Positions 3-3,831 of a stretch of 20,000 nt of DNA are shown here, one piece after another. The translations under genes and the position numbers were made by a program. The notes under the pieces were generated by a model. It was not told the DNA's origin. It saw nothing but the letters and a program-made list of their open reading frames with translations, and searched no databases. Every line of letters starts with the position of its first letter. Position 1 is the first letter of the stretch. Origin of the DNA: an uncultured virus (IMG/VR IMGVR_UViG_3300044825_003036) (lineage: Duplodnaviria; Heunggongvirae; Uroviricota; Caudoviricetes); the IMG/VR virus record IMGVR_UViG_3300044825_003036. The stretch is one strand, 5' to 3'.

Positions 3-1160
3 GCCAAAACCGATCTGGTTGGCACAGGCTTCACGTCGAAGGAGCTCGATCGGATGCTGAGCAAGGCGAAGGTCTCGGCAGTCGAACAGCAGGGCGAGCC
101 GGATGCGGGGGAGCTGCCGACCGAGCCGATTTCCAAGGCCGGCGATCTTTGGCTGCTCGGGGACCATCGGCTGGTGTGTGGGGACTGCCGCGACTCGACG
201 GTGATGGCGCGCCTCATGGACGGCGACTTGGCGGACGAGCTGTTCGCCGATCCGCCGTACGGCATGGGCAAGGAAAAGGATGGGATCGTGGGCGACAACC
301 AGTACGGCCCGAAGCTTGACCAGTTCCAAAGCGAGTGGTGGCGTGCTGTGCGTCCGCACCTCAAGTCGACGGCGGCGGCGTACATCTGGGGCAATGCGCC
401 GGACTTGTGGCGCTGGTGGTTTGGCTGGCTGTCGCTGAGCGAGACGCTCACGTTCCGCAACGAGATTGTTTGGTACAAGGGGGATTACGCTAACGGGCAA
501 CGAACCGCGGTGGCCCTGCAGTACCCGGTTCTGTCCGAGCGCGCGCTTTTTTTCGTTCTGGGGAACCAAGCTGCTGGAGCGCGTAACCAGGCCCGCTATT
601 GGCAGGGGTGGGAACCGATCCGTAGTTACTTGGCGGAGGAGGCCAAGGCGGGCGGGCTCAACGCGGGCAGGGTCAAAGAGCTCACGGGTGCGGGGATGTG
701 GCAACACTGGTTTTCCAAGAGCCAGTGGCTATTCCTGCCTGAGGACGCCTACCAAGCGCTTCGGGCCGCAACTGGACGTTTCGAGAGGTCCTATGCGGCG
801 CTTAGTGCCCAATATGAGGCGCTCCGGTTTGAGTTCGAAAAGCTGCAGACGGCGGAGCGCGCCTACCACGACAACACCCACGAGAAGATGGGCGACGTGT
901 GGGAGTTCCCGCGGCTCGTGGGCGCCGAGCGGCATGGGCACGCGACGCCGAAACCCGTGGCGCTCGCCAAGCGCGCGCTGCTCACGTCGTGCCCGCCTGG
1001 CGGCGTCGCGGTGAGCCCTTTCGGCGGGACGGGCCCCGAGCTGTTGGCGGCGGAGCAAACGGGGCGTAGGGCTCGCCTGGTGGAGCTCCAACCGGCTTAC
1101 GTGGACGTCGTGATCGAGCGGTGGCAGCGATTGACTGGAGGGAAAGCGAAGCGGGGCTGA
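3..1160 (+). CDS. Phage DNA amino-methyltransferase (N6-A/N4-C, beta class; probably ParB-fused), 5'-truncated by the window edge
   Basis: The frame is open from the window start (AKTDLVGTGFTSKELDRML). It has GDLWLLGDHRLVCGD, catalytic DPPY, HATPKPV and the SAM-binding PFGGTG, and ends in ELQPAYVDVVIERWQRLTGG, the usual tail of phage ParB-MTases. Confidence 0.93.
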   Translation, partial: AKTDLVGTGFTSKELDRMLSKAKVSAVEQQGEPDAGELPTEPISKAGDLWLLGDHRLVCGDCRDSTVMARLMDGDLADELFADPPYGMGKEKDGIVGDNQYGPKLDQFQSEWWRAVRPHLKSTAAAYIWGNAPDLWRWWFGWLSLSETLTFRNEIVWYKGDYANGQRTAVALQYPVLSERALFFVLGNQAAGARNQARYWQGWEPIRSYLAEEAKAGGLNAGRVKELTGAGMWQHWFSKSQWLFLPEDAYQALRAATGRFERSYAALSAQYEALRFEFEKLQTAERAYHDNTHEKMGDVWEFPRLVGAERHGHATPKPVALAKRALLTSCPPGGVAVSPFGGTGPELLAAEQTGRRARLVELQPAYVDVVIERWQRLTGGKAKRG

Positions 1161-1166
1161 GACCGC

Positions 1167-1194
1167 TTGCGCGCCGCTCCGGTCCTGATAGTCT
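1167..1194 (+). promoter_or_regulatory. Putative sigma70-like promoter
   Basis: TTGCGC (1167-1172), 16 nt, then TAGTCT (1189-1194) with TG at 1186-1187 (extended -10). It shares CCGCTTGC...CCGCTCCGG with the motif at 5546-5563. Confidence 0.45.
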
Positions 1195-1241
1195 CGACGG
1201 GTAGCTACGGCATGGCTACGCCTCGTGTGTTGAGTGGAGCT

Positions 1242-1278
1242 CCCCCGTCTGGTAACCCCAGGCGGGGGTTTTCTTTTT
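1242..1278 (+). terminator. Intrinsic terminator
   Basis: 11-bp stem CCCCCGTCTGG/CCAGGCGGGGG (one G-U) with a 5-nt loop, followed by TTTTCTTTTT. Confidence 0.88.
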
Positions 1279-1312
1279 GGGGGTGACGAAACGTGCCGGG
1301 CTCTTGTTGGAC

Positions 1313-1792
1313 AGATCCCCCCCATTCTTCCCTGGTAGTGACTAGGGAAGGTGTTGGATCTTGGGGACCAGGGGATCCGGGGTCAGTCCTGCTACGCTCT
1401 CCGAACCTGCGAGACCAGGGGTTCTGTGGTGCGCTCTTGGGGACCTATGTCGCTAGCCTGAGGCGGCAGTTACCCCGCCTCGGATACCGAGTGCCTACCG
1501 AGGGGGGGTTGTGCGCGTGGGGCCGTTCGAGCCCACGAGCGATCGGCTGCCTGTTCGAGGCGCGAGAGAGCGCCCCTTGCCAACATGCGGCTGGGTACTG
1601 ACTAGGGTTGCTGACCATTTCGGCTCACGCCGCACACCGGTCCCGCGGGTGCAATGGGGCGCCATCAGCGAAAGCGCTTGGCCCGAAACCGCTTGGCGGC
1701 TGCAGGCGAACAGGGTAGACCTGTGTCCGGGACTGGACTGATACACCGCCCAACCCTACCTCGGACGTAATGCCCCTGGGGTAGGGTTTTTT
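1313..1792 (+). ncRNA. Candidate large structured RNA or attenuator leader (family unknown)
   Basis: No convincing ORF. Helices at 1327-1336/1341-1350 (extended by 1313-1318/1356-1361), 1460-1466/1475-1481, 1516-1521/1532-1537, 1559-1563/1570-1574 and 1586-1591/1629-1634, plus long-range pairs 1547-1557/1707-1718 and 1498-1515/1747-1764. It ends in a terminator. Confidence 0.55.
1752..1792 (+). terminator. Intrinsic terminator, potentially conditional
   Basis: 13-bp stem AACCCTACCTCGG/CTGGGGTAGGGTT (two G-U) with T6 at 1787-1792. Its 5' arm can alternatively pair with 1498-1515. Confidence 0.8.
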
Positions 1793-1927: not shown

Positions 1928-2001
1928 TGCGGTTTAGAGCAGCTCGGTAGCTCGCTAGGCTCATAACCTGGAGGTCGTTGGTTCAAATCCAACAGCCGCA
2001 A
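1928..2001 (+). tRNA. tRNA-Met (CAT), initiator (fMet)-like; CCA not encoded
   Basis: Cloverleaf: acceptor TGCGGTT/AGCCGCA, D arm GAGC-AGCTCGGTA-GCTC, anticodon arm CTAGG-CTCATAA-CCTGG (CAT at 1962-1964), T arm GTTGG-TTCAAAT-CCAAC, discriminator A2001. The D arm, CTCATAA loop and TTCAAAT loop match bacterial initiator tRNAs. Confidence 0.96.
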
Positions 2002-2003
2002 CT

Positions 2004-2216
2004 GAAACGTCCAGAGTCCCTGCTTTGACTTCTCCCCCGCCGGGAACACCGATGGGAAGGGGAGCAAGATGGTGCGGGATGATGCAGGATCCTGTTAAAC
2101 GCAGGGAATTGACCCTGAGTCCGGCGAGTATGGGCGGCCAGCCTTGAGCCGCACCGCGATGACCCGGGCGATTTGTGCGCCCGCCAGCGGGAAGCTGGTG
2201 GGACTCTGGACGGTTC
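2004..2216 (+). ncRNA. Candidate structured RNA domain downstream of the tRNA (family unknown)
   Basis: Perfect 13-bp long-range helix CGTCCAGAGTCCC (2008-2020)/GGGACTCTGGACG (2200-2212). It encloses helices 2032-2037/2059-2064, 2071-2077/2149-2155, 2102-2106/2113-2117, 2166-2170/2178-2182 and 2183-2188/2194-2199. Confidence 0.55.
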
Positions 2217-2258
2217 GCCCAAGGGCCTGGGGCAGGTGGCACAGAAAAAACCTGCCCA

Positions 2259-2305
2259 CCAAAACTTTTCCTTGCCGATTTATTCTGGCTAAGGGAAGTT
2301 TTGGG
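2259..2305 (+). promoter_or_regulatory. Repeated promoter/operator-like motif, copy 1
   Basis: AAAACTT...CTTGCC-N13-TAAGGGAAGTTTTGGG, with the same spacing and the same 16-mer at 5538-5583. Contains TTGCCG-17-GAAGTT and is flanked by the inverted repeat CCAAAACTT/AAGTTTTGG. Confidence 0.7.
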
Positions 2306-2307
2306 CA

Positions 2308-2337
2308 TGCCGCGGTTGGCGGCAACGAAAGGACAAG
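2308..2337 (+). promoter_or_regulatory. Hairpin + ACGAAAGGACAAG leader/RBS element, copy 1
   Basis: TGCCGC-GGTTG-GCGGCA-ACGAAAGGACAAG, 3 nt before ATG 2341. Confidence 0.85.
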
Positions 2338-2340
2338 ATC

Positions 2341-2541
2341 ATGGACGCAGTATTCAGCAAGATCGGCACGACTCGTGCGGGCAAGCTCACTCACTGGATC
2401 AAGGGTGAGGTGCGCGGCCACCAAGCCCCAGCTTGTGGCCAGAATCGTCGGGCTTGGGGTGCTGGGGACATGAGGACCCTGGCAGCGGAGACCCGCCCAA
2501 CCTGCGCTCACTGTCGCAAGATTCAGGCGGCGAAGGCATGA
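2341..2541 (+). CDS. Small hypothetical protein, possible Zn-binding (H...CG...CxxC)
   Basis: Preceded by the leader element. Contains THW, PACG and TCAHC. Its stop overlaps the next ATG (ATGA). Confidence 0.75.
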   Translation: MDAVFSKIGTTRAGKLTHWIKGEVRGHQAPACGQNRRAWGAGDMRTLAAETRPTCAHCRKIQAAKA

Positions 2542-3174: not shown

Positions 3175-3806
3175 TGGTCTGGGATCCAGAGGCAGCAAAA
3201 AAGAAAGAGAGCGAGATTCGGCAGCGGCTCAAGGCGGAAGCCGAGGTTCTGTTGGAGTTGGTGGTTGCGGAGCTCGTAAAGCGTGGTTTCAAGGCCGAGC
3301 CGATTGCCTTGGGCCAGCGTGCAGGGGTTGGCTCAGGATCCGCTAGGCGGCGCGCGATGTTGCTGATCGGGCAGCAGCGTGTCCCGTTGTGGATTGAACA
3401 GGACCGCGAAACTGGCACCCTTGGCCGCTCCATATGGCAAGATTGGTTGCGGGTTTCGTGCGATGGGATTTACGGCGGTTTTCGAACCCGCGAAATCCCG
3501 ATGCGAAGCAAGACGTTTGCTCGGTCGAAGTCGCGAGAAGCGACCTACGGTTTTGACGTCGAGAAGATTGCAGACCACTGCGAGGCGTGGGCAGCGCTGG
3601 ATGTCTCCACTCGCCTGAAAGAAGAGCTCAGTGACTCGGCCCTGGAAGCCTGGGAAAAGGCCAAGGAGCGCCTCGTGTTACAATTCCCCTCGGCAGAGGG
3701 ACACCTGAGCGCGACGGACAAGGGTTTGAGCTTGAAACTGTTGGTAAACGAGGGCCAGGCGGTAGCGTTGCTGGAGCTCCTGAAGTTGAACGAAAAGGGC
3801 CGCTGA
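3174..3806 (+). CDS. Hypothetical protein
   Basis: ~210-aa ORF coupled to the upstream stop, with plausible composition but no recognised motif. Confidence 0.75.
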   Translation: MVWDPEAAKKKESEIRQRLKAEAEVLLELVVAELVKRGFKAEPIALGQRAGVGSGSARRRAMLLIGQQRVPLWIEQDRETGTLGRSIWQDWLRVSCDGIYGGFRTREIPMRSKTFARSKSREATYGFDVEKIADHCEAWAALDVSTRLKEELSDSALEAWEKAKERLVLQFPSAEGHLSATDKGLSLKLLVNEGQAVALLELLKLNEKGR

Positions 3807-3826
3807 GGCGGCAACGAAAGGACAAG
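3799..3826 (+). promoter_or_regulatory. Hairpin + ACGAAAGGACAAG leader/RBS element, copy 2
   Basis: GCCGC-TGAG-GCGGC-AACGAAAGGACAAG upstream of ATG 3832. The loop contains the upstream gene's TGA stop. Confidence 0.85.
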
Positions 3827-3831
3827 AGGAA

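Follow-up and report, generated by a model that had tools for sequence, protein, structure and literature searches.

What does the DNA directly behind the tRNA-Met gene of an uncultured phage encode, and does it act as an RNA at all? The window in which this question arises, i.e. the whole 20,000-nucleotide stretch of DNA analysed here, is part of a ~64-kb phage-like contig. The features on which the following argument is based are compiled in Table 1.

Genomic context of the tRNA-Met gene

A DNA methyltransferase gene (54-1160) is followed by a non-coding stretch (1161-2340) and small genes, after which DUF6744, MoxR ATPase, vWA, exonuclease, Sak4-like annealing protein and replication initiator genes are all located on the plus strand. 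Related sequences belong to uncultured phages, including UFOVP650, and to a contig from a Deltaproteobacteria MAG; the DUF6744 proteins of such relatives are 45-53% identical. The MAG contig hints at the host group, and the hosts of these phages are probably Deltaproteobacteria/Myxococcota-like. Near-identical DNA is present in freshwater runs, from which the phage may originate, and in one animal gut run from another study.

The tRNA shares 82% identity with a tRNA-Met from G003, a Deltaproteobacteria genome. Judged by what are presumably initiator identity elements (A11:U24, a weak U1:A72 pair and two instead of three anticodon-stem G:C pairs), it is initiator-like. CCA is not encoded at its 3′ end, which is ordinary, since the G003 tRNA-Met lacks it as well and CCA follows only 21 of 80 similar viral tRNAs (approximate frame). 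No terminator was called between the tRNA and gene 2341, which opens a long plus-strand run of early and replication genes. The same purine-rich leader of ~19 nt precedes this gene and the DUF6744 gene (2317-2340; 3807-3831). Related phages with the same gene module have neither a tRNA-Met at this place nor the unit behind it.

The unit behind the tRNA had been read as devoid of a credible ORF, which agrees with the searches made: there was no Pfam match for the three ORFs tested and no PHROGs match for the eight tested, and in an exact look-up in a collection of 15 billion proteins none of the six ORFs overlapping the unit was present, gene 2341-2541 being present. No RNA run was listed as containing the stretch, and in the one RNA run examined, coverage was restricted to the tRNA and came from the tRNAs of other organisms. 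A near-identical strain (run X4) is represented by a contig covering 1924-3566, with three differences from the window: G2062A inside the unit, one at 2258, and 133 other letters replacing 1912-1923. The first converts a U.G into a U-A pair of the predicted hairpin P2 on the plus strand, which as a single change is weak evidence. The 133 letters upstream of the tRNA might represent a further small RNA or tRNA. The strain also lacks 3620-3763.

Table 1. Features of the tRNA-Met locus and of comparable viral loci
Feature	Position	Strand	Basis or remark
tRNA-Met(CAT)	1928-2001	+	ARAGORN; Rfam RF00005, 63.2 bits
P1, 5′ arm	2004-2020	+	perfect in 2008-2020; GAA 2004-2006 beyond one mismatch; mean pair probability 0.96
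P1, 3′ arm	2200-2216	+	pairs with 2004-2020
P2, predicted hairpin, GAACA pentaloop	2024-2068	+	pair probabilities 0.66-0.98
P3, predicted hairpin	2074-2095	+	overlaps 12-nt self-complementary stretch 2084-2095
P4, predicted hairpin, 5 bp, both strands	2102-2117	+	probability 0.91 on +, 1.0 on -
tRNA-complementary stretch	2116-2153	+	pairs with tRNA 5′ half
P5, predicted hairpin	2131-2156	+	probability 0.74-0.96
P6, predicted hairpin	2165-2183	+	probability 0.60
P7, predicted hairpin, GGGAA pentaloop	2183-2199	+	probability 0.95
8-bp hairpin outside P1	2230-2257		not called by terminator scan
18-nt imperfect inverted repeat (2259-2276/2287-2304)	2259-2325		repeat and promoter pattern scans
First downstream gene, 66 aa, purine-rich ribosome site	2341-2541	+	ORF scan; exact match in protein collection
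Stem-closed unit of L207	about 1067-1169	-	no Rfam match
Stem-closed unit of L215	about 1263-1354	+	no Rfam match
First ~70-nt family			L137, L142, L159, L178, L182, L189, L198, L199
Second ~70-nt family			L138, L149, L153, L157, L163, L165, L168, L170, L173, L186, L200

The closing helix and the fold of the unit

The sequence-only reading had described a perfect 13-bp helix (2008-2020/2200-2212) starting 7 nt past the tRNA and extendable by GAA/TTC. Both parts were confirmed; with the extension, which spans one A.G mismatch, the helix has 16 of 17 pairs. The core of this helix, P1, consists of Watson-Crick pairs only, with no G.U pair and no bulge. P1 is the sole perfect 13-bp helix with arms within 260 nt in the whole 20 kb. 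A helix of this kind appeared somewhere in 15 of 200 shuffled 20-kb windows, i.e. it is moderately rare as such. When the 330-nt trailer of the tRNA was shuffled, 13 bp starting at most 10 nt from the tRNA never occurred in 5000 trials, and a start within 40 nt was seen once in 1500; 12 bp were reached in 2/5000 (the window's own trailer). Long helices by themselves are not rare in such DNA, as 8 of 13 related phage loci possess a helix of at least 12 bp with at most one G.U in the stretch (up to 4.5 kb) upstream of the DUF6744 gene. P1 was retained in folds with the tRNA attached, up to position 2310 (probability 0.84-0.96); upon addition of 2311-2345 it was dropped from the predicted fold (probability 0.19). 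P1 is real, and its position is plausible for an RNA. A non-coding, stem-closed unit adjoining the tRNA, as initially proposed, is supported by the helix statistics together with the position.

Comparison of the folding energy with shuffled controls gave a divided result. On the plus strand, the whole unit (2004-2216) folds better than shuffles (z -3.8), and it ranked first among 93 tiles of 213 nt, which were placed in register with it and evaluated with 20 shuffles each. By contrast, the interior (2021-2199) by itself is at chance level (z -0.98; 35/200 shuffles equally good). When the arms were fixed and only the interior was shuffled, 42 of 300 sequences were as stable on the plus strand. 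The same holds for the at least five nested helices that had been suggested: the minimum free energy structure comprises six hairpins (P2 to P7), but this does not exceed chance, as at least five hairpins were also predicted in 36% of the shuffled interiors. Hence, the folding signal is mostly due to the closing stem. The inner multibranch part constitutes no independent evidence, because it folds no better than shuffles. In the predicted structure, P6 and P7 stack against P1, and in P2 a Shine-Dalgarno-like GGGGAG, which precedes a 9-codon ORF at 2068, is paired with a pyrimidine tract.

Downstream of P1, the 8-bp stem proposed at 2230-2237/2250-2257 was found as well; it is followed by no U-tract on either strand. 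The adjacent inverted repeat region (2259-2325) carries two promoter-like sites facing each other (TTGCCG-18-hexamer; +2272 and -2325), which were detected by a loose pattern of our own and are absent from a stricter scan. The repeat with its mirrored sites could be an operator/promoter switch for early genes.

Comparison with known RNA families

The unit had been judged by eye not to be a tmRNA, SRP, RNase P or 6S RNA, and no Rfam match at E values up to 10 was obtained for any of them. In the covariance scan, only the tRNA reached the gathering score, and nothing relevant up to E 10 emerged from 1100-2450 and 2002-2310. Look-alikes of group II introns, the cobalamin riboswitch, T-box, attC and RNase P, noticed by eye from their motifs, found no support in Rfam either and were dropped.

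GOLLD (RF02032) and ROOL are also large structured phage RNAs encoded near tRNAs. GOLLD, however, comprises ~800 nt with a conserved 3′ domain of ~400 nt, compared to ~215 nt of the unit. The env-38 GOLLD is reported to sit 3′ of a Met-tRNA, with self-complementary loops connecting GOLLD monomers (10.1101/2024.12.08.627333). A site beside a phage tRNA, often tRNA-Met, is thus shared with the unit, but this trait is not specific. The unit is not a GOLLD RNA by the searches made: there was no RF02032 match, and nhmmer with two 3′ domains (L215, L314) gave no match in the window. An alignment to the upstream parts of these two loci, where the 5′ domain is expected, was at shuffle level (best 8/150, on the minus strand), a comparison that is weak since 5′ domains are variable. 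Among 80 viral tRNA-Met loci, ten, several of them near-identical, have a GOLLD 3′ domain at most 1.2 kb from the tRNA (L215 by Rfam, nine more by nhmmer), indicating that ncRNAs cluster at phage tRNA-Met genes. L314 (1045-1492, from genome G035) contains a GC-rich GOLLD-like RNA of 93 bits, below the gathering score, with a tRNA-like insert read as having a TCA anticodon; it was seen in a single genome out of 151 from the phylum of G003.

Small ribozymes were considered as well. The minimal HDV fold is several times shorter than the unit. On the plus strand, the consensus P3/L3 loop pattern of HDV-like ribozymes, part of their nested double pseudoknot, is absent, and on the minus strand there is one unpaired look-alike. 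Theta ribozymes are described as structured RNAs beginning at the 3′ end of mostly CCA-less phage tRNAs (PMC10879173). The unit resembles theta and HDV-like ribozymes in its position, as these start within ~5 nt of the tRNA end and its stem begins at +3 when the extension is counted or at +7 for the core. A further difference is that the phage analysed here is not of the gut Bacteroidota type. A hammerhead ribozyme, with a core of CUGANGA and GAAA, was dismissed, as CUGANGA does not occur in 1881-2320 on the plus or in 1991-2320 on the minus strand. A bacterial Y RNA is less likely too: no TROVE/Ro60 protein was detected among the scanned ORFs of the window or in five related phage records (four of them at least 90% complete), and there was no second tRNA-like match.

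A precedent is provided by phage T4. Its species I and II RNAs are shorter than the unit, and we know of no function assigned to them. Like the unit, they are non-tRNA RNAs from a phage tRNA region, but they are demonstrated transcripts, whereas the unit is a prediction in an unrelated phage. Both are reported to be produced from the T4 tRNA precursor (PMC2330249). Neither Rfam nor the phage collection gave any match connecting the unit to them by sequence.

Homologues and recurrence of the layout

Blastn with 2002-2260 yielded no match in 50,697 phage records and, in 72,556 plasmids, seven matches of 22-32 nt, none of them credible. In 401 genomes of the phylum of G003, 26 short matches were obtained, of which the best 15 were judged to be chance. 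Exact-pattern scans of IMG/VR returned 3 and then 11 loci, none with a tRNA or similarity. A covariance model built from the single sequence, which is insensitive, recovered the window itself only in 89 + 100 + 80 sources (2.48 Mb), and three matches of ~20 bits, all without P1, in 3 + 151 + 5 genomes or records. Nhmmer over all 314 loci detected no homologue of the unit. A homologue may nevertheless exist, since the DNA of the closest relatives (52-53% protein identity; UFOVP650) lay outside these searches. Because none was found, no covariation was observed; X4 is a single near-identical strain with one change inside the unit. The literature searched did not describe this RNA. A relative could be present among the 10,006 candidate viral RNAs aligned in the supplement of PMC10690425.

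The layout of the unit was compared in 80 loci fetched out of 83 matches to this type of viral tRNA-Met, with 62 distinct trailers. Two of the 80, L207 and L215, possess a perfect 12-bp stem 5-6 nt after the tRNA-Met, closing ~95-100 nt. Both are unrelated in sequence to the unit in the window. The stem-closed layout appears to recur beyond chance (2/80 versus 2/5000, the control representing the composition of the window only). The same loci revealed two conserved families of ~70 nt directly behind viral tRNA-Met genes (Table 1), which could be tRNA-adjacent ribozymes or small RNAs.

Neighbouring non-coding elements

The region upstream of the tRNA (1161-1927), which is non-coding too, contains terminators as well as a conserved element. 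The latter (1290-1792, plus strand) aligns with ~2120-2680 on the minus strand of L009, a metagenomic contig from a distant phage in which the flanking genes are the same (methyltransferase 52%, DUF6744 34% identical), and is inverted relative to these genes. None of 200 shuffles reached the alignment score under three scoring schemes. Within a 70-nt core (1614-1684), two blocks of 10-12 nt are equally spaced in the window and in L009, and a terminator-like hairpin is located at the same end of both copies. By eye, a three-way junction and a hairpin can be drawn for the core. As a whole, 1290-1792 folds no better than shuffles and has no Rfam match, and no third copy was found. The element is possibly a second, better supported ncRNA, or else a DNA signal. 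Having a true homologue, which the unit lacks, it may be the better lead. A relationship between the two, suggestive by eye, was discarded since their similarity is at shuffle level.

A further candidate (1167-1278, plus strand) combines a promoter-like TTGCGC-16-TAGTCT with a following stretch of ~85 nt whose end is a strong terminator (1242-1278), which is reminiscent of a small RNA; it was the second-best folding tile. Similar promoter-hairpin units can be seen by eye at the same place in L234, L241, L244 and L245.

Possible nature of the unit

The explanation preferred here, at somewhat less than even confidence, is that the unit specifies a lineage-specific, small stable ncRNA of ~215 nt, one of the products of a tRNA/ncRNA cluster of the phage. 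It would be released when the tRNA 3′ end is processed, and its ends would be shielded by the stem. It would thus be a discrete plus-strand transcript. The tRNA transcript would read through into 2002-2216, as no terminator separates them. RNase Z is reported to cleave CCA-less precursors at the tRNA 3′ end (PMC7479834), and the host enzyme, as the most likely nuclease, would cut the precursor after A2001, so that the new 5′ end would lie two bases ahead of the stem. Pairing of both ends in the 16/17-bp stem might then block exonucleases, and trimming would be halted by the stem or by the hairpin at 2230-2257. More speculatively, the RNA could work in trans, either providing a scaffold for a host RNA-binding protein or acting as its decoy, and it might dimerise via the self-complementary stretch 2084-2095.

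This small-RNA explanation is favoured because of the strength and position of the helix relative to shuffles, the stability of P1 with the tRNA attached, the missing coding signal and the recurrence of the layout in L207 and L215. The GOLLD domains near tRNA-Met genes, the precedent of T4, the non-coding surroundings and the change in the X4 strain, which keeps the plus-strand pairing of P2, point in the same direction. On the other hand, it is weakened by an interior at shuffle level on the plus strand and better folding of the minus strand, by the lack of homologues and covariation, by long helices in 8/13 related loci, and by a P1 core without G.U pair or bulge, as in a DNA-level repeat. 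The loss of P1 in the presence of 2311-2345 and the related phages without tRNA and unit also count against it.

The unit may instead be functionless, an inverted repeat that arose by chance or by recent duplication in GC-rich intergenic DNA under weak constraint, its inner hairpins being due to chance. This is rather unlikely. It would account for the unremarkable interior, for perfect 13-bp repeats in shuffled windows, for the similar helices upstream of DUF6744 and for the failure of the searches to find a homologue. However, position and length of P1 were never jointly reproduced in the 5000 trailer shuffles, a compact phage has retained 340 non-coding bases, and the layout is seen again in two other loci.

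Alternatively, the structure might function only in cis, within a transcript extending from the tRNA into the early operon, as an RNase III-type processing stalk or a stabiliser/antitermination module that never becomes a free RNA. The lack of a called terminator before gene 2341, the plus-strand orientation of all major downstream genes, the Shine-Dalgarno-like tract masked by predicted P2 and the altered fold upon addition of the leader to 2345 are consistent with such a role. Yet the promoter-like site at +2272 (loose pattern) could drive gene 2341 directly, known leader families have no match in Rfam, and 13-17 bp are short for an RNase III stalk, making this assumption unlikely.

The strand assignment is tentative, since folding of the minus strand is at least as good. 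A structured antisense RNA might start at the promoter-like site -2325 and head toward the tRNA. For this strand, the z value is -5.6 (-3.8 on the plus strand), only 8/300 shuffled interiors between fixed arms were as stable (42/300 on the plus strand), and most helices have probabilities above 0.85; the mirrored promoter-like sites fit as well. A minus-strand RNA is nevertheless improbable, since an end at 2004 adjoining the tRNA 3′ end suits a plus-strand cut and G2062A converts a U.G into a U-A pair on the plus strand. Moreover, the plus-strand loops are purine-rich pentaloops of the GNRNA type whose complements are atypical RNA loops, a post hoc argument.

A DNA element, be it the ends of a miniature transposon, the arms of an invertible segment or the a1/a2 repeats of a retron-type RNA, is very improbable. 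The purely Watson-Crick core, a DNA fold of z -4.05 and the variation of the region between strains (the replacement of 1912-1923) would suit it. However, neither a target-site duplication at four choices of ends nor a second copy of the arm pair was found in the window, which argues against a MITE or non-autonomous IS, and there is no full-length copy in the 401 host-group genomes. The single other contig (X4) has the same orientation, although contigs drop rare forms. No tyrosine or serine recombinase was detected in the five related records or the window ORFs scanned. Retron msr-msd RNAs are closed by a long inverted repeat, and the 13-17-bp closing repeat of the unit resembles the a1/a2 type; a retron is less likely since the 31 window ORFs scanned and the five records contain no reverse transcriptase and the unit no long msd-type hairpin.

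The weakest explanation is an anti-tRNA RNA in which 2116-2153 base-pairs with the tRNA-Met 5′ half, either in cis, as a switch blocking phage tRNA maturation, or in trans, against the host initiator tRNA. It has in its favour collinear pairing over ~31 of 36 tRNA bases and, G.U included, 14/14 contiguous pairs with the host-type tRNA-Met versus 13/14 with the phage D/anticodon arm. It is scarcely probable, as 2-4 of 150 shuffles are as good or better, a marginal result noticed post hoc. Moreover, equally good pairing was seen in 7-9 of 192 native windows, and the minimum predicted for 1928-2216 consists of the cloverleaf and P1. It is just as doubtful that a co-expressed variant initiator tRNA replaces that of the host while this RNA, cut from the same precursor, pairs better with the D/anticodon arms of the host tRNA-fMet than with those of the phage tRNA; if true, it would be an antisense RNA against a tRNA.

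Implications for phage tRNA loci

As a lone orphan, the unit makes no open question testable yet. No RNA of this kind surfaced for this phage group in the searches made here. Stem-closed units recur 5-7 nt behind viral tRNA-Met genes, and a simple search for this layout may serve to screen for such RNAs. If the unit behind the tRNA-Met of this phage is transcribed, an uncatalogued RNA of ~215 nt would join the short list of those encoded behind phage tRNAs, i.e. theta ribozymes, GOLLD and the species I and II RNAs of T4.
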